Shown here: positions 1 through 10,059 of the stretch, in pieces
How the letters are laid out: each line of letters starts with the position of its first letter
Numbering within the stretch: position 1 is the stretch's first letter
Program-made: the position numbers and the translations under genes
Notes under the pieces: generated by a model
The model's input: only the letters and a program-made list of their open reading frames with translations
What the model was told of the DNA's origin: nothing
Databases searched by the model: none
IMG/VR virus record: IMGVR_UViG_2713896898_000004
Span: 1-10,059 of that record
DNA from: a virus
Taxonomy: Duplodnaviria > Heunggongvirae > Uroviricota > Caudoviricetes
Direction: 5' to 3' (one strand)
Length of the DNA stretch: 10,059 nucleotides

Positions 1-543
1 CGCGTCAATGTAATCCAGCACAGCGTTAAGTCTGGTTGTTTCTGCCTGTGTCAGTTTACGTCCGGCCTGCAATTTCAGTTGAATCAGACTGATGGAAGCC
101 ATTGCAGTATCAATCAGCGACTGGCGCTGTGCTTCTGCTGCATCTACTGCGGCGCTGCGCTGTGCCCCGGTATCCGTCACCCATTTCTCACCATCCCATT
201 TATCGTATGACGTTAACGGAGCGAGAGTGGTTGTATTTTCAGGATAATCTCCCGGTACTGTAATTTCTTTTGCTTCTCCTGTTTCAGTGTTATAGACCGT
301 TTCACCGCGATGGTCTGGCACATACTCCCATGAGTTTAAATCTGCTGAACGGCAGATAGCATAACCAGCTTTATGTGTGCCAGGTGCATCTAAACAGGAA
401 TACGCCGGAATACCAACACCTACAGCAAGAAATTCGGTTGATGCAGAAATATATTCCCTTGTCTCACTGTTATAGTTGTAAACGATAATGTTTCCTTCCT
501 GTACGGCAATAAGCTCATTGTTTAATATCGCGTTATTCATCAT
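1..543 (-). CDS. Tail fiber assembly protein (Tfa-type chaperone); 5' portion only, the 3' end lies beyond the window start
   Basis: Minus-strand frame starts ATGATGAAT at 543-535; its ATG (543-541) overlaps the TGA stop (542-540) of the upstream cassette (ATGA coupling). Hand translation: MMNNAILNNELIAVQEGNIIVYNYNSETREYISASTEFLAVGVGIPAYSCLDAPGTHKAGYAICRSADLNSWEYVPDHRGETVYNTETGEAKEITVPGDYPENTTTLAPLTSYDKWDGEKWVTDT..., open to position 1. The HRGxTVY and KWDGxxWV pattern is typical of phage Tfa chaperones. Absent from the ORF track because there is no stop inside the window. Confidence 0.75.
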   Translation of the reverse strand, partial: MMNNAILNNELIAVQEGNIIVYNYNSETREYISASTEFLAVGVGIPAYSCLDAPGTHKAGYAICRSADLNSWEYVPDHRGETVYNTETGEAKEITVPGDYPENTTTLAPLTSYDKWDGEKWVTDTGAQRSAAVDAAEAQRQSLIDTAMASISLIQLKLQAGRKLTQAETTRLNAVLDYIDA

Positions 544-1067
544 GCAGCTCTCACAATATAGTTAAATGCAATATTTCGCGGGCGTGTTTCACTACCGCCG
601 GGAATCTTAAAGGCATTAAATACTCCGCCGCCCGACTGACTTATTCCATCTGTATACAGCCCGCCTCCTGCACTGTCGCTGATTGCAAATGTTTTTGATG
701 GTGAACTGTTTGAGGCCGGTCCCCAGTATTTCAATTCGAGCTTTCTAACCTCATCTCTCTGAATACTCAATAAAGCACGTCCGGCATCAATAGCACGCCC
801 ATCATCCCAGCCACGAATAAATTCACCGCGTAAATCAGGCAGTTTTCCTGACGGGTACGCTGTGGCTAGTTTGGGATACTTCAGCTTATCAAAGGCAGCA
901 CCATTGCATTTTAGCCAGCCCTCTGGAGGTGTGGCTGAAGGCCACGGAACTGTTACACCAACAGGCAACGCAGAACCTTCCCCCAAACCAACGTTTTTAA
1001 CTTCGAAAACAGAGCTATCTAATAGCATTTTTACTAACAGAAACAGGATGCTTTTTATGCAAATTGG
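540..1067 (-). CDS. Tail fiber C-terminal variable (receptor-binding) cassette, Mu Sv'-like; probably silent in this orientation
   Basis: Track ORF 540-1028 (162 aa) has tail-fiber/tail-collar-like motifs (WLKCNGAAF...YPKL...LPDLRGEFIRGWD). The frame stays open 13 codons upstream of the first ATG to a stop at 1068-1070, with no convincing RBS. Followed by the Tfa gene with ATGA overlap and head-to-head with the invertase, as in Mu G-segment/gin and P1 C-segment/cin. Confidence 0.6.
   Translation of the reverse strand, partial: PICIKSILFLLVKMLLDSSVFEVKNVGLGEGSALPVGVTVPWPSATPPEGWLKCNGAAFDKLKYPKLATAYPSGKLPDLRGEFIRGWDDGRAIDAGRALLSIQRDEVRKLELKYWGPASNSSPSKTFAISDSAGGGLYTDGISQSGGGVFNAFKIPGGSETRPRNIAFNYIVRAA
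978..1003. other. Candidate gix/hix-like 26-bp invertase crossover site (12 + AA core + 12)
   Basis: TTCCCCCAAACC-AA-CGTTTTTAACTT. Left half matches the gix left half TTCCTGTAAACC at 9/12 (recalled consensus); right half matches hix GGTTTTTGATAA at 7/12; central AA dinucleotide. Lies inside codons 9-17 (EVKNVGLGE) of the tail-fiber cassette, about 55 bp from the invertase start. Confidence 0.35.
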
Positions 1068-1656
1068 CTATATTCGCGTATCAACAAATGACCAGAACAC
1101 GGATTTGCAACGCAATGCGCTCAATAGCGCAGGATGTGAACTGATTTTTGAAGATAAAATCAGCGGAACAAAATCAGCCAGACCGGGATTGAAAAAACTG
1201 CTCAGAACGTTATCAGCGGGGGATACGCTCGTTGTCTGGAAACTGGACAGGCTGGGCAGAAGCATGAAACACCTGATCACACTGATTGAGGAATTGCGGA
1301 AAAAAGGTGTCAATTTTCGTAGTCTGACGGATTCAATTGATACCAGCACCCCAATGGGACGATTTTTCTTCCACGTGATGGGCGCCCTGGCTGAAATGGA
1401 ACGTGAATTAATTGTAGAGCGTACACTGGCCGGACTGGCAGCAGCCCGCGCACAGGGGCGAATTGGTGGGCGTCGCCCGAAACTGACAAAAGAGCAACAT
1501 GAGCAAATAGCGAGGCTGATTAAAAACGGCCACGACAGAAAACAGCTGGCCATAATTTACGACATCGGTATATCGACGATTTATCGTTATCACCCTGTAG
1601 GTGACACGCAACCCGGAGGAATAATTGAGAATACTCAGGAAACAAAAAACCGCTAA
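1057..1656 (+). CDS. Serine DNA invertase, Hin/Gin/Cin/Pin family
   Basis: MQIGYIRVSTNDQNTDLQRNAL...DTLVVWKLDRLGRSMKHL...SLTDSIDTSTPMGRFFFHVMGALAEMERELIVERTLAGLAAARAQGRIGGR... is near-identical in motif content to Gin/Hin (catalytic Ser in YIRVST, C-terminal HTH). Start chosen at ATG 1057 (AGGA 9 nt upstream) rather than the track's 862, which overlaps the tail-fiber cassette. The stop TAA 1654-1656 lies in a terminator stem. Confidence 0.93.
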   Translation: MQIGYIRVSTNDQNTDLQRNALNSAGCELIFEDKISGTKSARPGLKKLLRTLSAGDTLVVWKLDRLGRSMKHLITLIEELRKKGVNFRSLTDSIDTSTPMGRFFFHVMGALAEMERELIVERTLAGLAAARAQGRIGGRRPKLTKEQHEQIARLIKNGHDRKQLAIIYDIGISTIYRYHPVGDTQPGGIIENTQETKNR

Positions 1657-1677
1657 TCTGAACATTAGCGGTTTTTA
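1645..1677. terminator. Bidirectional intrinsic terminator between the convergent invertase and U genes
   Basis: Perfect 13-bp stem AAAAACCGCTAAT / ATTAGCGGTTTTT with a 6-nt loop (CTGAAC); A-run on one side, T-run on the other; sits between stops at 1656 (+) and 1685 (-). Confidence 0.65.
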
Positions 1678-1684
1678 CGTTAAA

Positions 1685-2173
1685 TCAGAACACCCCTTTA
1701 ACTGAGCTGACCACATTGTTAAGGGATGATGTCACCTTATCTTTAAGACCGGACAGCATATCACTGAACGATGAGGATTGCAGGCGCTCCCGCAAATCCT
1801 CATCACAGCGTTCAAGGGTCAGGGAAAACTCTATCTTTTTCGCTTTCCCGTAGCGATCCAGTTCAGAGCGGGTCGTGCTCGTTTCAGTCAGAACATACAT
1901 GCCGTAAATCTGCCCGACGCCATCAATCAGAGGCCACGGGCGTCCCGCATACGCCTGCGTGGTCAGCAGCGACAGCGACACTTCGCCGCCTGTAATCTCA
2001 GGATAAAGCACGCCAGAAAGAACGATGCGATCATCACCTGCACCGATATACTGCCAGCTTGCTGAACGGTTAACGCGCTCGTTTTTCACATGTCGCCAGC
2101 TTTTGTTTTGCTGTAACTGCTGATGCGGCAATGTGCGCAATTCAAAAACAAACATGCCGTAGATCATCATCAT
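1685..2173 (-). CDS. U: P2-like tail protein gpU
   Basis: 162-aa ORF directly downstream of the tape measure gene; AAGGAG RBS overlaps the T stop. MMMIYGMFVFELRTLP...GVLYPEITGG...GRPWPLIDGVGQIYGMYVL resembles P2 gpU. Gene order T-U matches P2. Confidence 0.85.
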   Translation of the reverse strand: MMMIYGMFVFELRTLPHQQLQQNKSWRHVKNERVNRSASWQYIGAGDDRIVLSGVLYPEITGGEVSLSLLTTQAYAGRPWPLIDGVGQIYGMYVLTETSTTRSELDRYGKAKKIEFSLTLERCDEDLRERLQSSSFSDMLSGLKDKVTSSLNNVVSSVKGVF

Positions 2174-2184
2174 GGCACGACTCC

Positions 2185-5022
2185 TTACTCTTTATCATAA
2201 AAGCTTCCACGCCCGGCACGGGTACGCCGCTCCAGTTCTGCCCTGACCATTTCGCCGACCAGTTTCGCCAGTTCGCGGGGATTCTGCGTAACAACGTTAT
2301 GCAGATGGACATGAATTTCACCACCAAATCCGGGGGTCGCAGCCTCCCGGCTGCGGGAAGATGCGGAAACGGGCGCAACTGGCGCACGTGCGGCCTCCAC
2401 GACCGGACGGGAGCTTGCTGCAACAACAGGGGGCAGCGCCGGAGATAACGGAGCCGGGGGCGCGGGAGTGATATTGATTGCAGGAAGAGCCTTGTTGCTC
2501 TGCGCAACCTTTCGCTCCTGCCACTCCCCACGAACAGCAAGCGCACGGGGCAGGTTCTTAAAGACAATATCACCGGGGCCGATACGCTTTTTCGTCTCAT
2601 CAACCAGCCTGCCTGTGTTATCTGCAATTTTGCTGAGCCTGCGCAGCGTGCCAGTGTTGTTGTCCGTGAGCGGCTTGTTGTCTTTAGGCTTATCGCCTCC
2701 GGTCCCTGTTTCCGCAGATTTCGGCGGATTGATTTTTGCCAGGTCCCCCTGAAGTAAAGCAACCTTGTCCTGAAGAATGGCCGCACGCTGCGCGTCTTCG
2801 ATTTTCTTTCTCGCCCTTTCCGCTTCATCTGGAAGGACGCCAAGTTTTTCCAGTATCCATGCCAGCGTATCCAGCAGCATTTTTGCAGGCGTCAGGACAA
2901 GCTGTAACGCACCGCCAAGAACGTTGCCGAACACCTCGCCAGCACTGGTGCATTTATCCAGCGTTTCCTTGCTGGATTCCATCGGTGACAGCAGCGATGT
3001 AAACCAGTTAAAGACCTGAATCACGCCATCACGAACCAGTTCGAAAACAGGGCCAAACCGTTCAAAGGTTTCGCGTAACGGGGCCAGCCGCTCCATAATC
3101 CCGCTGAACACCCCGGCAAAAAATGCCCTGATTGGGTCCCAGTATTTCCAGATGAGAACGGCAGCTCCGGCAAGCGCAGCTACGATAAGACCGACCGGGC
3201 TGAACAACGCCCCGATAGCGCCTCCCAGTAAAGAGACGGAACCCGCCACCATTCCCCACAGCGCTGGCAGGACCCTGACAGCATTCATTGATCCGGTCAG
3301 GAGGGAAAAACCAAGACGCAGTTTTGCCAGCGGGCCAGCAAGCACCCCAAGAGCCAGTGACAACGAGCCAACCGTTGCAGTCATTGCCAGCAGCGCACCG
3401 CCTGCAATCAGTAGCTGGCGCGTCAGTGCCGGATGGGCCTGCGCCAGCTCCGTCACCTTTGAGACCACCCGAGTGAGCCACTGCGTGACAGAGCGCAGCG
3501 GACCGTCAATCAGATCCGCAATGCGGATACGCAGCCCCTCCCATGCACTGCCGAGTGATTTCAGGTCGCCATCAAGGTTATTGGCCATAACCTTTGCCGT
3601 GCGTTCAGCCTCACCGCGTGCGCCTTCAAGTTCTTTTCTCAGTTTGGGCAGAGAACCGTCACCTGCCGCATCAACGAGAGCCATAAATGACGTGAAGGCC
3701 TCTTCTCCGGCTATGTCCTTAAAGAACGATACCCGGTCAACTTCCCCGTATTTGCGGGTGGCTTTATAAAGGTCGGCCAGCACATCCTCCATCGGGCGCA
3801 TTTTGCCGTTCGCATCAGAGACAGCCACACCAAGCTCTTTCAGCGCCTCAGCTGCCGCCTTTGGCGGTGATGCCAGACGAGCAAGGCTGGCACGCATTGC
3901 CGTCCCGGCATCACTCCCTCTGATACCCATATTCGCCAGCACGCCCGCCATCGCTGCGGCCTGCTCCAGCGATATTCCCAGCTTACCCGCCACCGGACCT
4001 GCATATTTCATGGTTTCGCCCAGCGCGCGAAGGTCGGTGTTAGTACGGGTAAACGCCGCAGTAAGTGTGTCGCCGACCCGGTCCATCTGGTCAGCAGAGA
4101 GGCCGAACTGCGTCAGGATATTTGAGCCAATATCCGCCGTCTCGCCAAGGTCCATACCGCCAGCCGTTGCCATGCTCAGCACGCCGGGAAGCGCAGCCTG
4201 AATGGCTTCTGGTGTGAAGCCAGCCATAGCAAGAAATGCCTGCCCACTGGCGGCATCACTCGCAGTAAACTGCGTTTCAGAGCCGAGCTTTAGCGCCTGC
4301 TCACGCAGCGCCTTAAACTGCGGGCTGTTCTGGTCAATTCGCGTCAGCGCCTGCACACGGGACATCTCTTTCCCGAATCCGATAGCGGGCTGCAAAAAAC
4401 GCCCGGCAGCATAGCCGCCAGCCGCTGCCGCACCAGTTGCCAGCGCACCACCCGTTTTCAGTTTTCCCGCTGTTTCCTGCGCGCGTGAATACTGCTCACG
4501 CGCCCGCGTTACACGCGCAAGCGCCTGTCGTTCGCGTTCAAGCTGGTTGTTGTACTGTTCGGTGCGTCTGATGGCCTGCTGGATGGTGTTATCGCTGCCT
4601 GTCAGGGAAATACCGTGGCGTTTAAGCTCTCCGCCAAGCTCCCGCATTTTCTGAATTTCCCGTGTGCGCGATTCATTCAGGCGTTCAAGCCGGGTGCTTA
4701 ACTGCTGCATCAGCTTTTGTTGTTTTTCGCTGAGCACCGTACCCGTGCGTTGTAACTGATGAAGGGCGTTAAGCTGGCGTCGTGCTTTCACGATGCCAGC
4801 ATCCGCTTTACTGACAGCATCGCGGGCGCGCTCAAATGAACGCGCCTGACGCTCGAGATTTTTGATCGCCCCCTGCGTTCGCTGGATGGAGTCACCAAGC
4901 TGTCCCATCAGGCGGCGGGCGTTTTCGGCTGGCCGGGTCAGCCTGTCAACAGCACTGAAGGCGACCCGAATGTCAAGAGTCTTCATCGTCTGCATTCCCA
5001 CTGCGAAGTGCCGCCCGCTCAC
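2185..5022 (-). CDS. T: Tail tape measure protein (gpT-like)
   Basis: 945-aa ORF with a coiled-coil-rich N-terminal region (repeated Q/R/E/L-rich heptads), a central hydrophobic Gly/Ala-rich segment and an Ala/Pro-rich C-terminus; sits between E/E' and U as in P2. The true start may be an internal Met (MQTMKTL...), since E' overlaps the 5' end. Confidence 0.9.
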   Translation of the reverse strand: MSGRHFAVGMQTMKTLDIRVAFSAVDRLTRPAENARRLMGQLGDSIQRTQGAIKNLERQARSFERARDAVSKADAGIVKARRQLNALHQLQRTGTVLSEKQQKLMQQLSTRLERLNESRTREIQKMRELGGELKRHGISLTGSDNTIQQAIRRTEQYNNQLERERQALARVTRAREQYSRAQETAGKLKTGGALATGAAAAGGYAAGRFLQPAIGFGKEMSRVQALTRIDQNSPQFKALREQALKLGSETQFTASDAASGQAFLAMAGFTPEAIQAALPGVLSMATAGGMDLGETADIGSNILTQFGLSADQMDRVGDTLTAAFTRTNTDLRALGETMKYAGPVAGKLGISLEQAAAMAGVLANMGIRGSDAGTAMRASLARLASPPKAAAEALKELGVAVSDANGKMRPMEDVLADLYKATRKYGEVDRVSFFKDIAGEEAFTSFMALVDAAGDGSLPKLRKELEGARGEAERTAKVMANNLDGDLKSLGSAWEGLRIRIADLIDGPLRSVTQWLTRVVSKVTELAQAHPALTRQLLIAGGALLAMTATVGSLSLALGVLAGPLAKLRLGFSLLTGSMNAVRVLPALWGMVAGSVSLLGGAIGALFSPVGLIVAALAGAAVLIWKYWDPIRAFFAGVFSGIMERLAPLRETFERFGPVFELVRDGVIQVFNWFTSLLSPMESSKETLDKCTSAGEVFGNVLGGALQLVLTPAKMLLDTLAWILEKLGVLPDEAERARKKIEDAQRAAILQDKVALLQGDLAKINPPKSAETGTGGDKPKDNKPLTDNNTGTLRRLSKIADNTGRLVDETKKRIGPGDIVFKNLPRALAVRGEWQERKVAQSNKALPAINITPAPPAPLSPALPPVVAASSRPVVEAARAPVAPVSASSRSREAATPGFGGEIHVHLHNVVTQNPRELAKLVGEMVRAELERRTRAGRGSFYDKE

Positions 5023-5191
5023 GCCAGCTAACCACTTCGCCGGGCGTCATCATGAAGATTTCGGCGGGCGACCAGTTAAAAATAACGGCAATATCTGCCA
5101 CAAAGTCTTCTATGTGCTCAAAGCACACAACCGTGATCAGGCTTCCGTCGCCTGTTCGTTCTTCCCGCCAGAGTCCGCACCGCTCAAAAAA
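4973..5191 (-). CDS. E': E' extension, expressed as an E+E' fusion by -1 programmed ribosomal frameshift
   Basis: The -1 frame relative to E is open from the slippery site to a stop at 4973-4975 and overlaps the 5' end of T, exactly as for P2 E+E'. The track's 78-aa ORF 4973-5209 covers this frame. Confidence 0.65.
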   Translation of the reverse strand, partial: FFERCGLWREERTGDGSLITVVCFEHIEDFVADIAVIFNWSPAEIFMMTPGEVVSWRERAALRSGNADDEDS

Positions 5192-5505
5192 TTTACGGCA
5201 ACCACACATAACTGAATAAAGTCACGGGATGCCATTTTTTTGATCGTCACTTCATCCAGTCGCGGTGATGTCACGCGTGACAACAGCGTAAACATGGATT
5301 CCGCTTTCAGATTCAGCACATCAGACAGCGACAGACCACGCAGGGATCCAGCCTGCTCAATAGCCCCGGTAATCTCCACATACGTGATTTTTTCGTCGCC
5401 TCGCTCAATTGGCTGGGTAAGTTTTACGCCGCGCTCGCCGGTTTCTTTCGCAGTATCAGCAACCACCACAGCGTTTTCAGTATTGGTATTTTTCGTCTCT
5501 TTCAT
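5137..5505 (-). CDS. E: Tail assembly chaperone gpE (frame-0 product)
   Basis: 122-aa ORF; AAGGAG 7 nt upstream of ATG 5505; position between FII and T as in P2; contains the T6G slippery site near its 3' end. Confidence 0.8.
   Translation of the reverse strand: MKETKNTNTENAVVVADTAKETGERGVKLTQPIERGDEKITYVEITGAIEQAGSLRGLSLSDVLNLKAESMFTLLSRVTSPRLDEVTIKKMASRDFIQLCVVAVNFLSGADSGGKNEQATEA
5185..5191 (-). other. Slippery heptamer T TTT TTG (T6G) for the E to E+E' -1 frameshift
   Basis: Minus strand reads GTA AAT TTT TTG AGC in the E frame; a -1 slip gives AAA TTT TTT GAG CGG..., continuing into the E' frame. T6G is the slip-site type described for the P2 FETUD operon. Confidence 0.6.
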
Positions 5506-5524
5506 CAGAAAACTCCTTTCAGTC

Positions 5525-5546
5525 AGAGGCGACGCACTGCGCCGCC
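5525..5546 (-). other. Stem-loop between FII and E (possible partial terminator / mRNA processing or stability element)
   Basis: Inverted repeat AGGCGACGCA / TGCGCCGCCT (9 of 10, with a G-U possible in RNA) in the 54-bp FII-E gap; no U-run follows, so not a canonical intrinsic terminator. Confidence 0.3.
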
Positions 5547-5559
5547 TGCATATTACTTA

Positions 5560-6072
5560 TCAGCCGAGCCCGAGCGCGGAGCGGATGCGGTCGGGTACAA
5601 TGTCCTTGCCATCCTTCCGGTAGATGTGGTTCACCAGGTCAATTTCCCACACCGGACGATCGTTAATACTCAGCTTGTAGTAGGTGTTTTTGACAGCGTA
5701 AGTGTGTGACGTGGCTTCGCCCTGTTTGGCCTCCCCCATATCAATTTCCGTCACACGCCCGCGCATCTCGATTTCATACAGGTCGCTTTCTGCATCGGTG
5801 TAGTATTCACCCGCAAAACGCAGCAGCGTGCCGTCCATTGTTCCGCCATATTTAAGGAACAGCGCACGAACGGCGCCACCCATGACAAAACTCGCATCAA
5901 GCGCGGAATCGTCCAGGCCGAGGTCGATACTCACCGCCCCCATCATGCCACCACCACGATAGCTGTCGGTTTTACGCGTCAGTTTAGGCGGGGTGACAGA
6001 CGTCACCTTACCCACTTCATTTTCACCATCCACAAACAGCGTAAAAAAACGAAGATGTTTTGGTACGGCCAT
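5560..6072 (-). CDS. FII: Major tail tube protein (gpFII-like)
   Basis: 170-aa ORF; the start ATG overlaps the FI stop (TAATG); size and position match P2 FII. Confidence 0.9.
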   Translation of the reverse strand: MAVPKHLRFFTLFVDGENEVGKVTSVTPPKLTRKTDSYRGGGMMGAVSIDLGLDDSALDASFVMGGAVRALFLKYGGTMDGTLLRFAGEYYTDAESDLYEIEMRGRVTEIDMGEAKQGEATSHTYAVKNTYYKLSINDRPVWEIDLVNHIYRKDGKDIVPDRIRSALGLG

Positions 6073-7256
6073 TAAGCACCTCCAAGCACTGCAAATGCAG
6101 GACCAAAGAACTCATCAGTGAACGCCTGGTAAAGCTCCATATCTTCCAGCGGAGGAACGGGCGTATATTTATAGCGAATACGCACGCGCCCCTGTCGTAA
6201 TTCTGTGGTGCTGTTATCCACGATGTCATACCAGCACGATGCGCCAATCAGTTTCCCGGCAGTAACCAGCGAATCCAGTTTTGCCCTGATGGCACTGATG
6301 ACGTCCTTCACGTTCGCGGGCGTTAGTGGACTGTCGATGGTTTCAAACTGCGCTTCCGCAATTGAATCAGCCAGCACCTGTGCGGTTCGGGTATACACCT
6401 CAAAGATGTAGGCGTTCGTTTCCGGTGTGCGGTTGCCCCAGAAGCGGAACCCGTTGCGGCGAATGATGGTTGTGATTTCTTTGTTGTTGAGGCTGTTGGC
6501 ATCGCTGTCATCAGCCTGCAACGACCAGAACACATGCCTGGACATCCCCAGCACATTTTTAACCGGAACGTTGGACAGCGATTTGTGCCAGCCCTGTTCA
6601 TGGTCAATGTACGCACGAAGGCCGCACGCATAGGCTGGCGCGGGGAAAACCTCATTCTCGCCACTTTTCGGGTTGTAAGCGATGAAGTCCGGCCACAGGA
6701 GCATCAGCTCGCGTTCGTTGAATTTTTCACGGTATGCAATGGCTTCAGCCATCGTGTTACAGCCATGACAGGAGGCATACACAAACGCGCGCAGTTTACC
6801 TGCAATCACGCACAGGGATTTTGTCACCGCCTCCGTGTCCAGCCCCGGCGCGGCCAGAATACGCGGACGGTATCCGATGCTTTCATCCTGCTCTGCAACA
6901 AGCAGCGCATACATCCCCGTATAGCTGCCGTCGGATTCAGAACCACCGATAACCAGTTGATCCTGTGTTTTTCCGTCTTCTTCTTTGTGTTCAGCCACGC
7001 GAACGACGATCACCTTTGTGCTCACCTGGTCTGCAATGGGTTTCAGCGCACGGTACAGCGTCCCCGTTGTCCCGCATTTTCCCAGCACGTCATTGACGCG
7101 GGTCACTAATGCAGGCTTGTTCAGCGGGAACAGCTTCGCGTCCGCATCGTCCGCCGTTGCCACGATACCGATAACGCTGGAATCAACGTCGTTAATTGCT
7201 GTTACCAGGTCGGTACTTTCCGTAACGCGGGCGCCATGAAAGCGAGTTTCACTCAT
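6072..7256 (-). CDS. FI: Contractile tail sheath protein (gpFI-like)
   Basis: 394-aa ORF, first gene of the minus-strand block; size and order (FI-FII-E-T-U) match the P2 tail operon. Confidence 0.9.
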   Translation of the reverse strand: MSETRFHGARVTESTDLVTAINDVDSSVIGIVATADDADAKLFPLNKPALVTRVNDVLGKCGTTGTLYRALKPIADQVSTKVIVVRVAEHKEEDGKTQDQLVIGGSESDGSYTGMYALLVAEQDESIGYRPRILAAPGLDTEAVTKSLCVIAGKLRAFVYASCHGCNTMAEAIAYREKFNERELMLLWPDFIAYNPKSGENEVFPAPAYACGLRAYIDHEQGWHKSLSNVPVKNVLGMSRHVFWSLQADDSDANSLNNKEITTIIRRNGFRFWGNRTPETNAYIFEVYTRTAQVLADSIAEAQFETIDSPLTPANVKDVISAIRAKLDSLVTAGKLIGASCWYDIVDNSTTELRQGRVRIRYKYTPVPPLEDMELYQAFTDEFFGPAFAVLGGA

Positions 7257-7413
7257 AGTTCCAGCCCCTTGTATCCGTTAAATGATTCGGCAACAATCAT
7301 CACCCACCACGCGCGTAATCTCATCCCTGCGCCGTTCTTGCCGCCCGGCGACAACAAAAAGCAGTAACCCCGCCCGCACACACATGCGACCATGCTGCAC
7401 AGGGAGGGAGCCG
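7257..7413. promoter_or_regulatory. Divergent FI / D intergenic region; candidate late-promoter region with an imperfect TGT-N12-ACA-like dyad at 7338-7355
   Basis: 157-bp gap between the divergently oriented FI and D starts; TGC-CGCCCGGCGACA-ACA resembles the dyad element of P2 late promoters (recalled consensus TGT-N12-ACA); strong SD GGGAGGGAG before the D ATG. Confidence 0.3.
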
Positions 7414-8523
7414 ATGATTGACACCACCATGCAACTGTTCAACCAGAGTACTGACCCCGTGAAGATGCCTGATTTTGATATTCTCGCGGAGGGGAAAACG
7501 CTGTCCGGTGTGACAGAACGCCTGATGAGCCTGTCACTGACCGACAACCGGGGATTTGAAGCAGACCAGCTAACCATCACGCTGGATGATGCTGATGGTC
7601 AGTTGCAGTTGCCGCCACGGGGCGCTCGCCTGACGGTTCTCATTGGCTGGAAAGGCGAACCGCTGACAGAAAAAGGCACTTACATTGTTGATGAAATTGC
7701 TCATGAAGGACCGCCCGACAGACTGACCATTTCAGCCAGAAGCGCAGATTTTCGGGATGAATTTAACGTCAAGCGCGAAGTATCCTGGCATGATGTGACC
7801 GTTGAACGCGTGGTGTCTGCAATTGCTCACCGATACGGCCTGAAACCGCAAATCAGCGAAATGCTGATGGATATTGAAATCGACCACGCTGACCAGACCG
7901 AAGAAAGCGACATGTCCTTCCTTACACGCATGGCGGAAATGCTGGGCGCAATCACCACGGTAAAAAGCGGTAATCTGTTATTCATCATGCCAGGTGGTGG
8001 CGTGAACGCGCAGGGAAAACCATTACCATCGTTTGCCATCACACGCAGCAGCGGCGATCGCCATCAGTTTCGCATTGCTGACCGCGAGGCGTATACGGGG
8101 GTACGCGCTTACTGGCTTGATCTTAATTACGGGAAAAAGAAAAAAGTCAGCGTGAAACGCCGCAAACCGCCAAAACCCAAAAAGGAGAAAAGCAGCAGCC
8201 GTGAAGGTGACTATATGGAAGGTGCGGAAGGCAACGTGTTTGTGTTACGCAAGACTTATCAGAACGAGCAGGCAGCAAGACGCGCAGCGGCGGCAAAGTG
8301 GCAGCAGCTACAACGCGGAGCCGCATCATTCTCCATCACGCTGGCGCGTGGACGCGCAGAACTCTACCCCGAAATGCATGGCACGGTAACAGGATTTAAA
8401 AGCGAGATTGATAATCAGGACTGGATTATTGCAAAAGCCGAGCACTCCATTGATAACAGCGGCTTTACCACGCAGCTTGAGCTTGAGGCAAAAATCCAGG
8501 AATGGATAGCAGAAACAGAGTGA
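7414..8523 (+). CDS. D: P2-like tail protein / late control gene D product (gpD)
   Basis: Start set at ATG 7414 (MIDTTMQLFNQ..., GGGAGGGAG SD) rather than the track's 7282. The 369-aa product is gpD-like in length and sequence character and is followed by ogr as in P2. Confidence 0.85.
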   Translation: MIDTTMQLFNQSTDPVKMPDFDILAEGKTLSGVTERLMSLSLTDNRGFEADQLTITLDDADGQLQLPPRGARLTVLIGWKGEPLTEKGTYIVDEIAHEGPPDRLTISARSADFRDEFNVKREVSWHDVTVERVVSAIAHRYGLKPQISEMLMDIEIDHADQTEESDMSFLTRMAEMLGAITTVKSGNLLFIMPGGGVNAQGKPLPSFAITRSSGDRHQFRIADREAYTGVRAYWLDLNYGKKKKVSVKRRKPPKPKKEKSSSREGDYMEGAEGNVFVLRKTYQNEQAARRAAAAKWQQLQRGAASFSITLARGRAELYPEMHGTVTGFKSEIDNQDWIIAKAEHSIDNSGFTTQLELEAKIQEWIAETE

Positions 8524-8565
8524 GCAACTTAGAATAGCGGCAGCACCACGTTAAGGGAGGTCGCT

Positions 8566-8826
8566 ATGTTCCGTTGTCCGCTTTGTGGCGCATCTGCCCG
8601 AATCCGCACCAGTCGTTCGGAAAATGATTCAGATACCGTACGGAAAAAATATTACCAGTGTAACAACCTGGAATGCGGCGTATGCTTCTCAACACTGGAG
8701 GCTTTCCATAAATTCACATCGAAACACGCCCCCGGCGTTCACTCTTCAGAGGGCATCCCGTGGAATGAGCTACCAGCTTCGCACAGGGGAAACAACCAGA
8801 TGAGTTTGCCATTACCTCAGAATTAA
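8566..8826 (+). CDS. ogr: Ogr/Delta-family zinc-finger late transcription activator
   Basis: MFRCPLCGASARIRTSR...YYQCNNLECGVCF: Cys4 pattern CPLC...CxxxxC typical of P2 Ogr; AAGGGAGG SD 5 nt upstream of the ATG; located directly after D. Confidence 0.85.
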   Translation: MFRCPLCGASARIRTSRSENDSDTVRKKYYQCNNLECGVCFSTLEAFHKFTSKHAPGVHSSEGIPWNELPASHRGNNQMSLPLPQN

Positions 8827-8835
8827 CAGGCTGAA

Positions 8836-8864
8836 TTGCCGGAGTAACAAAAAAGCGATAGATT
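8836..8864 (+). promoter_or_regulatory. Sigma-70-like promoter for the hok-family mRNA (TTGCCG-17 bp-TAGATT)
   Basis: -35 TTGCCG (8836-8841), 17-bp spacer, -10 TAGATT (8859-8864); predicted start near 8871, giving a roughly 400-nt transcript to the terminator at 9277, as expected for hok mRNAs. Confidence 0.45.
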
Positions 8865-8886
8865 ACGCGCGGGTGCCTTTCGGCTG

Positions 8887-9099
8887 ATGGCTGGAGGGAA
8901 TACCCGAAGGCCGGATGTGGAAAGGCCCCGGAAAACATCTCTGTTTAACCGAGGCCCTGACCATCTAACCTTAGCAAGTGATAGGTTAGCGCCTCCCCAA
9001 AAAAGGAGCAAGCGCTATGTCGCAAAAATCGCTTATGGCCATCACGTTCTGCGTGACGGTAATCCTCATCATCTGGATGCTGCACGGTTCGCTGTGTGA
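8887..9099 (+). CDS. mok-like overlapping reading frame (translational coupling frame for hok)
   Basis: 70-aa ORF in a different frame that starts upstream of and overlaps the first 83 nt of the hok-like ORF, the arrangement known for mok/hok. Confidence 0.4.
   Translation: MAGGNTRRPDVERPRKTSLFNRGPDHLTLASDRLAPPQKRSKRYVAKIAYGHHVLRDGNPHHLDAARFAV
8890..8990 (-). ncRNA. Predicted Sok-like antisense RNA (position approximate, promoter not resolved)
   Basis: By analogy with hok/sok loci an antisense RNA complementary to the mok translation-initiation region is expected; the hok leader contains a hairpin CTAACCT...AGGTTAG (8966-8989). No clear minus-strand promoter could be fixed by eye. Confidence 0.2.
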
Positions 9100-9157
9100 A
9101 ATACGGATGAGCTTCTGGGGAGCGGAGTTTGCGGCGTTCTTACAGTGTAAGCAGTAA
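9017..9157 (+). CDS. Hok/Gef-family type I toxin (small membrane peptide)
   Basis: 46-aa ORF, too short for the ORF track: MSQKSLMAITFCVTVILIIWMLHGSLCEIRMSFWGAEFAAFLQCKQ. It has an N-terminal transmembrane helix, the SLCE(I/L)R motif and a C-terminal E-x-AAF-L-x-CK, matching Hok-family peptides (closest in pattern to HokA as recalled). AAAAGGAG SD 8 nt upstream of the ATG. Confidence 0.8.
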   Translation: MSQKSLMAITFCVTVILIIWMLHGSLCEIRMSFWGAEFAAFLQCKQ

Positions 9158-9242
9158 GGAAACCGCGACGGGGGAGCAATCCCCCGTCAATCGGTTGCTA
9201 AGGCTGGCCGAAGTGGCACCCTATCCCATGGACACAAACAAG

Positions 9243-9277
9243 AAAACCCGCAGCGTAAAAACTGCGGGTTTTCTTTT
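9243..9277. terminator. Rho-independent terminator (bidirectional-capable) ending the hok-family transcript
   Basis: Stem CCCGCAG / CTGCGGG (9247-9253 / 9262-9268) with loop CGTAAAAA, followed by TTTTCTTTT and preceded by AGAAAA. Confidence 0.75.
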
Positions 9278-9348
9278 GGAGCTCTCACTTAGCTAAGGTA
9301 CCGTTAACAACACACATAATGCTCGCAAAACAAACCAGTTAAAAGTGA

Positions 9349-9630
9349 TTACTCAGCATTCTCCTGCTTCCATTGCCGGATCATTTCATCCGTAACATCA
9401 CTCTCATAACATACCACGTCATACCCTCCAGTACGGCTATATGCACTGCGTCTACCACATCTACTACCATTCCTTGCATGATTATAAGGACACGCACAAT
9501 TGCCTGGATACGATTCAATGGATTCTTTAATTATTTCTTTCTTGATCTGAGCATCAGACTTTCCTGTTGCTGCATACCCACTAAAAGATACCAAACAAAA
9601 ACAGATTGCCATTAATAAACCACATCGCAT
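9349..9630 (-). CDS. Small secreted cysteine-containing protein of unknown function (AT-rich cargo gene)
   Basis: Track ORF 9349-9744. The internal Met at 9630 starts a classic Sec signal peptide (MRCGLLMAICFCLVSFSGYA|ATGK); the mature part of about 73 aa has 4 Cys (GNCACPY...SRCGRRSAY...VVCYESDV). GC content is visibly far lower than the flanking phage genes. Confidence 0.5.
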   Translation of the reverse strand: MRCGLLMAICFCLVSFSGYAATGKSDAQIKKEIIKESIESYPGNCACPYNHARNGSRCGRRSAYSRTGGYDVVCYESDVTDEMIRQWKQENAE

Positions 9631-9852
9631 ACCGATACACTCTATTACTAACCAATCATAACCCACATCATAAAATCGAGATGTGGAGTACAACACCTTT
9701 AACAAGAAGGTGTCATAACGATAATATGCCGTGCAATTCATCAAAAAAAAGATCTATATCAAAGAGATAGAGCTCTTATCAGTGCTGCAGACATCGGCAT
9801 TCGAGGCAGCAGAAAAACAGTAAATCTGACGAATTTGCCTTTTCTCAGGATG

Positions 9853-10059
9853 TTGTCAGATTAAAAAAGACAGATTAGCGCAGGTACCTTTTGGTGGATG
9901 GCAGGAGGAAAAATGAAGTCGAGTGGAAAAATCCCAGAAAAATTTTTGTTTAACCGAGGTCCTAGTTCACTATGCGAAATACGGAGGAGCTGCAGGAGAA
10001 TTCGGCTTCATCCTTAGAGTTTAAACAGCACGTGCACTACTATTGTTTCTGCATATCGC
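9853..10059 (+). pseudogene. Second, degenerate hok/mok-leader paralog (internally deleted; runs off the window end)
   Basis: Roughly 65-70% identity by eye to 8836-8960 (shared TTGyCr...AAAAAG...GATGGCxGGAGG...TGTTTAACCGAGGyCCT), then jumps to a match with the hok SLCEIR-coding segment (GTTCACTATGCGAAATACGGAGGAGC vs 9093-9118, 22/26). The hok SD, start and transmembrane region are missing and the promoter spacer is only 12 nt. Confidence 0.4.

Follow-up and report, generated by a model that had tools for sequence, protein, structure and literature searches.

A second, incomplete copy of a hok/sok locus occupies the right-hand end of the window, the 10,059-nucleotide stretch analysed here (positions 1–10,059 of IMG/VR record IMGVR_UViG_2713896898_000004). 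This copy (9853–10040; hereafter copy 2) is very probably a non-functional, decayed relic, fixed in the P2-like phages that integrate at leuZ after one old deletion of about 128 bp, the term deletion being used by comparison with a 75%-identical paralog that lies about 1 kb upstream in the same window (copy 1). It is an ordinary pseudogene, i.e. a decayed member of a known family. The first-pass annotation, made from the letters alone, had described it as a decayed paralog with its leader fused to the 3' end of the toxin gene, a description supported by the alignment of the two copies, by a junction common to all alleles and by relaxed constraint.

Extension of the sequence beyond the window placed it at the right end of a P2-like prophage in the tRNA-Leu gene leuZ of Escherichia coli, with gpD, ogr, the intact hok locus (copy 1), an AT-rich stretch and copy 2 following one another in that order (Table 1). 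E. coli 510016 matches the window with 99.2–99.9% identity and continues beyond it with about 45 bp, the terminator of the glyW-cysT-leuZ operon with the 3'ETS, leuZ itself (tRNA-Leu(UAA), minus strand), pgsA, and uvrC, while strain 55989 has this prophage inserted between yecA and leuZ. The late genes gpD and ogr, followed by an att repeat that is also present at the int-proximal end, identify a P2-like (Peduoviridae) right end at a tRNA attachment site, and the right-end region is 93–95% identical to that of Xuanwuvirus phages.

Table 1. Features of the prophage right end, with positions in the window unless another sequence is named; identities are means among five full alleles.
Feature	Position	Strand	Basis or remark	Mean identity (%)
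Tail genes	within window	-		
gpD	7282–8523		Phage_GPD domain	
ogr	8566–8826		Ogr_Delta domain	
Copy 1, putative hok promoter	8836–8864	+	TTGCCG 8836–8841, 17 nt, TAGATT 8859–8864; read from sequence	
Copy 1, leader block	8849–8958	+	Homologous to copy 2 9863–9963; pairwise BLAST	96.9
Segment missing from copy 2	8959–9086 (128 bp)	+	Breakpoints from pairwise BLAST	
Copy 1, putative sok promoter	9011–8983	-	TTGCTC (-35, 9006–9011), 17 nt, TAACCT (-10, 8983–8988); by analogy with R1 sok and sokW	
Copy 1, hok SD	9003–9008	+	Inside the segment missing from copy 2	
Copy 1, hok CDS	9017–9157	+	Hok toxin, 46 aa, intact; ATG 9017; first 23 codons form the transmembrane helix	98.9
Copy 1, hok 3' coding end	9087–9160	+	Homologous to copy 2 9965–10040; alignment	
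Copy 1, hok mRNA terminator hairpin	9240–9275	+	End of the module shared with other P2-like phages	
AT-rich module, small secreted-type ORF between both hok copies	9349–9630	-	phrog_27544, E = 2e-58; function unknown	96.8
Copy 2, degenerate hok promoter	9853–9876	+	TTGTCA 9853–9858, 12-nt spacer, CAGATT 9871–9876; read from sequence	
Copy 2, leader remnant	9863–9963	+	Pairwise BLAST; GC 0.41 vs 0.56 in copy 1	87.9
Copy 2, deletion junction	9964	+	One base vs 128 bp (8959–9086) of copy 1	
Copy 2, remnant of hok 3' coding end	9965–10040	+	Alignment, translation	85.4
Spurious ORF (MRNTEELQ...)	9971–10059, off window end	+	Not a gene	
Start of attP/attR P arm	10055–10059, off window end	+	First ATCGCCAC repeat	93.5 (P arm)
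att repeat (124 bp)	L001 7569–7692 (starts about 45 bp past window end); L008 6028–6151			100

The relationship between the two copies first appears as a 17-mer, TGTTTAACCGAGGYCCT, which occurs exactly twice in the window (8942–8958 and 9947–9963) with no occurrence expected from 200 shuffles. Significant similarity reaches well beyond this short repeat, since pairwise BLAST returned two collinear blocks, the first joining 9863–9963 to 8849–8958 (83 of 110 positions identical, 75%; E = 3e-13) and the second joining 9965–9999 to 9087–9121 (28 of 35, 80%; E = 4e-5), followed by weaker similarity that fades near 10040, the equivalent of position 9160, where the hok ORF ends. These blocks bear out the earlier proposal of a second conserved hok leader about 1 kb downstream, and their breakpoints set the 128 bp of 8959–9086 against the single base 9964; the segment thus absent from copy 2 is the equivalent of the one holding the hok Shine-Dalgarno sequence (SD), start codon and transmembrane helix, as had been suggested. 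A phage database of 2.3 Gb likewise contains hok loci that match the copy 2 leader (E = 7e-8). Translation in the hok frame gives SSLCEIRRSCRRIRLHP* for copy 2 and GSLCEIRMSFWGAEFAAFLQCKQ* for copy 1, copy 2 being frameshifted relative to copy 1 and having lost the original stop. An extension of the homology further upstream, into ogr or gpD, had been hinted at by the short repeat families D1 and D5, and was discarded because the Smith-Waterman score of 23 was equalled or exceeded in 47 of 300 shuffles.

Copy 1 (8836–9277) served as the control hok/sok locus and was recognised by its protein family and mRNA fold, the RNA model alone remaining below threshold. Its ORF matches Pfam HOK_GEF (PF01848; 30.3 bits, cutoff 22) and phrog_251, 'MokW-like host killing' (E = 3e-23), and is annotated as Hok/Gef in RefSeq. 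Pairing between the 5' and 3' ends is a hallmark of hok mRNAs, and the fold of the copy 1 mRNA (8871–9277; z = -7.77 against shuffles) pairs the 5' end with a 3' element. In Rfam, the model named sok (RF01794) aligns to 8871–9005 with 40.9 bits, under its gathering score of 59, the match starting about 7 nt downstream of the putative hok promoter. By analogy with known loci, the Sok promoter and the Sok 5' end would lie within 8976–9011. Across alleles, the interval 8959–9016, which would comprise the sok promoter and target, is 73–97% identical, compared with 95–100% for the leader and 98–100% for the hok coding sequence, a variability that may reflect diversified antitoxin specificity.

Both protein matches, together with the long-range 5'-3' mRNA fold, make copy 1 a member of the group represented by hokW-sokW of the Stx2 prophage Sp5 and by hok-sok of plasmid R1 (type I toxin-antitoxin), and the hok locus of Stx2 phages is 83.6% identical to it at the DNA level; hokW-sokW is an experimentally demonstrated prophage toxin-antitoxin system (PMC8621323). 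Homology to hok/sok was likewise found for copy 2, which holds a promoter, a leader and a C-terminal coding sequence of this type by descent. Unlike these systems, however, it is devoid of the putative sok promoter region, SD, start codon, helix, 3' UTR fold-back element and terminator, while its C-terminal remnant is frameshifted and its promoter spacer measures 11–12 nt; as such, it cannot act as a toxin-antitoxin system.

No intact Hok ORF of about 50 amino acids with SD, start codon and N-terminal helix was found in copy 2, the short end in the hok frame being all that is left, nor was an antisense sok gene with its own promoter overlapping the hok SD region, the putative counterpart in copy 1 (8976–9011) falling inside the deleted segment. 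Neither 3' UTR homology nor a terminator was detected between copy 2 and the att core. The spacer of about 12 nt reported by the first-pass annotation was confirmed in the window and measures 11–12 nt in all alleles versus 17 nt in copy 1, and a consensus promoter scan of copy 2 called no promoter on either strand. A structured RNA was also considered and rejected, with negative results from the single-sequence fold (z = -0.13, no better than shuffles), the alignment fold (compensatory changes in 0 of 38 predicted pairs) and Rfam, where RF01794 gave no match to copy 2 at E ≤ 10 in searches of 1,760 bp and 371 bp. The differences of copy 2 from copy 1 are biased from G/C to A/T (23 vs 10, p = 0.035).

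Extension past 10059 also settled the status of the frame opening at ATG 9971, which could not be judged from the window, by bringing 3'ETS-leuZ and leuZ into view downstream. The frame stays open for 83 codons in the window allele (L001), as a small protein gene explaining the region would require, but its course is antisense to the 3'ETS-leuZ terminator and to leuZ, within which it ends. Other alleles have a stop after 5 or 14 codons or a frameshift caused by 1-nt indels, and none of the RefSeq genomes examined carries an annotation for the frame. Allele comparison rules it out as protein-coding, and there is next to no chance that a real gene starts here.

Copy 2 was detected by blastn in 615 of 5,426 complete E. 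coli genomes (~11%), in one piece and with 87–100% identity, all other matches being copy-1-type leaders with 74–78% identity. The same deletion junction recurs in these 615 genomes, in nine aligned alleles and in 25 viral contigs from IMG/VR. No intact progenitor was found in the collections of complete E. coli, phages, plasmids, IMG/VR and GTDB species, where every match was either the deleted form or a copy-1-type locus with about 75% identity. No other segment of the region is as poorly conserved as copy 2 (Table 1), and its alleles present scattered one-nucleotide indels alongside several invariant blocks of 10–20 nt. Its drift appears neutral.

The uniform junction and the invariant blocks could nonetheless hint at a residual role in cis; with retention universal and a few blocks invariant, a function in cis or as RNA keeps a low probability. 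Copy 2 might be kept as accessory DNA of attP (an IHF/Cox bending site or a spacer), as an insulator that separates the moron from the leuZ operon, or as a leader-derived RNA titrating antisense RNAs of the Sok type, a proposal favoured by its retention everywhere with a single junction, by its short invariant blocks and by its position 15–200 bp from the putative integrase arm sites. It is nevertheless improbable, given that divergence is the highest of the region, that neither a fold signal nor covariation was found, that the 12-nt spacer leaves no usable promoter, that the putative target of the Sok 5' tail belongs to the missing segment, and that one-nucleotide indels are scattered over the alleles. 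A bolder version, in which the relic would have been domesticated as attP-proximal DNA in every leuZ-integrating P2-like phage, for the spacing or bending of the P arm or through a leader-derived RNA cross-talking with the Sok of copy 1, is highly improbable; if it were true, such an RNA from copy 2 would tune toxin release on induction.

The first-pass annotation had offered, as an alternative to decay, that the two leaders were a target duplicated upon acquisition of the AT-rich module, i.e. direct repeats produced by an insertion (target or junction duplication) rather than an independent decayed paralog. Both copies do flank the AT-rich ORF in direct orientation, and the GC content drops at 9278, the module itself having a value of 0.35–0.45. 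The copies, however, share only 75–80% identity, against 95–100% between alleles of copy 1, and they are not equivalent, one being a full locus and the other having a 128-bp gap and no 3' UTR. Moreover, ogr and copy 1 are shared at 93–95% identity with P2-like phages that carry neither the AT-rich module nor copy 2, and the check proposed at the time, whether the copies flank an insertion in related genomes, yielded no single-copy 'empty' site joined to a leuZ-type P arm in complete E. coli genomes. Since similarity of ogr-hok to these phages stops at the hok terminator and allele identity drops after it, duplication by insertion of the module is disfavoured and must be considered exceedingly unlikely.

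The phages sharing ogr-hok at this level are of the Xuanwuvirus type (P88, Chuche, P884B11 and others), and their matches in the phage database, where they were found to have neither AT-rich module nor copy 2, stop at 9225–9277, i.e. at the hok terminator. Immediately past the terminator (9278–9348), allele identity falls sharply, to 67–96%, in keeping with a recombination joint, and 9225–9348 looks like such a joint, with a widespread ogr-hok module on one side and attP-specific DNA on the other. On this comparison of sequences, copy 1 is a separate evolutionary unit, part of an ogr-hok module exchanged among P2-like phages. Near-identical enterobacterial ogr-hok sequences were also met in two assemblies labelled as Firmicutes, a Planococcaceae MAG (L038) and a Vagococcus sp. 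(L041), both probably contaminated records. As for the AT-rich module, the product of its ORF, labelled hypothetical protein in RefSeq, has a signal-peptide-like N-terminus and conserved cysteines; because it is 96.8% conserved among alleles, the ORF is probably an expressed moron.

The att repeat extends from the 3'ETS-leuZ terminator to the anticodon loop of leuZ, thus including 3'ETS-leuZ and the 3' half of the tRNA gene. The attL and attR copies of strain 55989 do not differ from each other, the empty site of K-12 has one copy, and the repeat restores leuZ on integration. Relative to the repeat, copy 2 is on the phage side, and it also occurs in two attP-form contigs of IMG/VR (L018 and L021, the latter from a 34.9-kb contig), which carry gpD, ogr, hok, the AT-rich ORF, copy 2, the att core and a tyrosine integrase. 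For these two reasons, copy 2 is phage DNA, and its derivation from a host-side leftover of an older element was rejected.

Some 15 bp separate the end of copy 2 from the first ATCGCCAC repeat. These repeats, which flank the att core on both arms, are candidate integrase arm-type sites, with five matches in L021 against 0.64 expected. Just past copy 2, the motif is found at 11-bp spacing, as ATCGCCACACC, ATCGCCACTCC and ACCGCCATTGC, and it occurs once more on the int side of the core, all copies having one orientation (window 10055 onward; L001 7521–7553; L021 3705–3712 and 3959–3977).

As in other tRNA-integrating temperate phages, whose attP contains the 3' portion of the tRNA gene that they target, the 124-bp repeat restores the target, and accessory genes (here hok and the AT-rich ORF) are situated between the last late gene, ogr, and attP; a difference is that the repeat extends past the tRNA to cover the operon terminator and the entire 3'ETS-leuZ sRNA sponge. 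Given this extent, it is the phage that supplies lysogens with the 3' half of leuZ in use and with the 3'ETS-leuZ sponge RNA, the displaced host copy adjoining int. Some strains retain only the last 190–430 bp of the prophage beside leuZ (L004 1–4000, L006 1–4000 and L012 1–3000), these remnants consisting of part or all of copy 2 with the att region and being abutted by IS1 or ISEc52, past which restriction, TIR-domain, PD-(D/E)XK or Tn10-derived genes are found. In L012, the copy 2 leader has lost its 5' part to the IS1 insertion. A turnover hotspot thus seems to exist at leuZ. A literature search yielded nothing specific on this hok relic or on a hok locus beside the leuZ att site, leuZ being no more than named among the prophage integration sites of STEC (PMC8767318).

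The following course of events is proposed for the decay. One old deletion would have taken about 128 bp and, with them, the ribosome-binding site, start codon and membrane helix of hok as well as the putative promoter and 5' end of sok. Also lost would be the 3' UTR, including its fold-back element and terminator, leaving the remnant to abut the putative integrase arm sites, and the spacer of the hok promoter would have shrunk to 11–12 nt. Owing to the deletion, the lost 3' UTR and the shortened spacer, copy 2 would make neither toxin nor antitoxin, and since then it would have been in neutral drift. Its location, with a retained moron gene on one side and the essential attP on the other, would explain why it has been carried along as a passenger; in the leuZ-integrating P2-like lineage it is a fixed part of the accessory region that separates ogr from attP.

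The classic degenerate hok-sok loci of E. coli K-12 are chromosomal, and in most of them the inactivating event was an IS insertion, a point mutation or a rearrangement. Copy 2 differs from them in combining an internal deletion with a 3' truncation, in being phage-borne beside attP, and in being fixed across the leuZ-integrating lineage. Degenerate chromosomal hok-sok loci coexisting with intact ones have been described in enteric bacteria (Pedersen and Gerdes, 1999, as relayed by PMC2887945), and copy 2 resembles them in being degenerated and seemingly non-functional, with intact paralogs in the same genome.

The importance of copy 2 beyond annotation is little. The unannotated 200 bp that adjoin leuZ in roughly 11% of the complete E. 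coli genomes are to be read, very probably, as a hok/sok pseudogene of a P2-like phage rather than as a gene or an sRNA. Copy 2 also marks the border at which the exchangeable ogr-hok module would end and attP-specific DNA begin, and it provides a dated example of the decay of a toxin-antitoxin locus in a phage genome, with a functional paralog 1 kb away.
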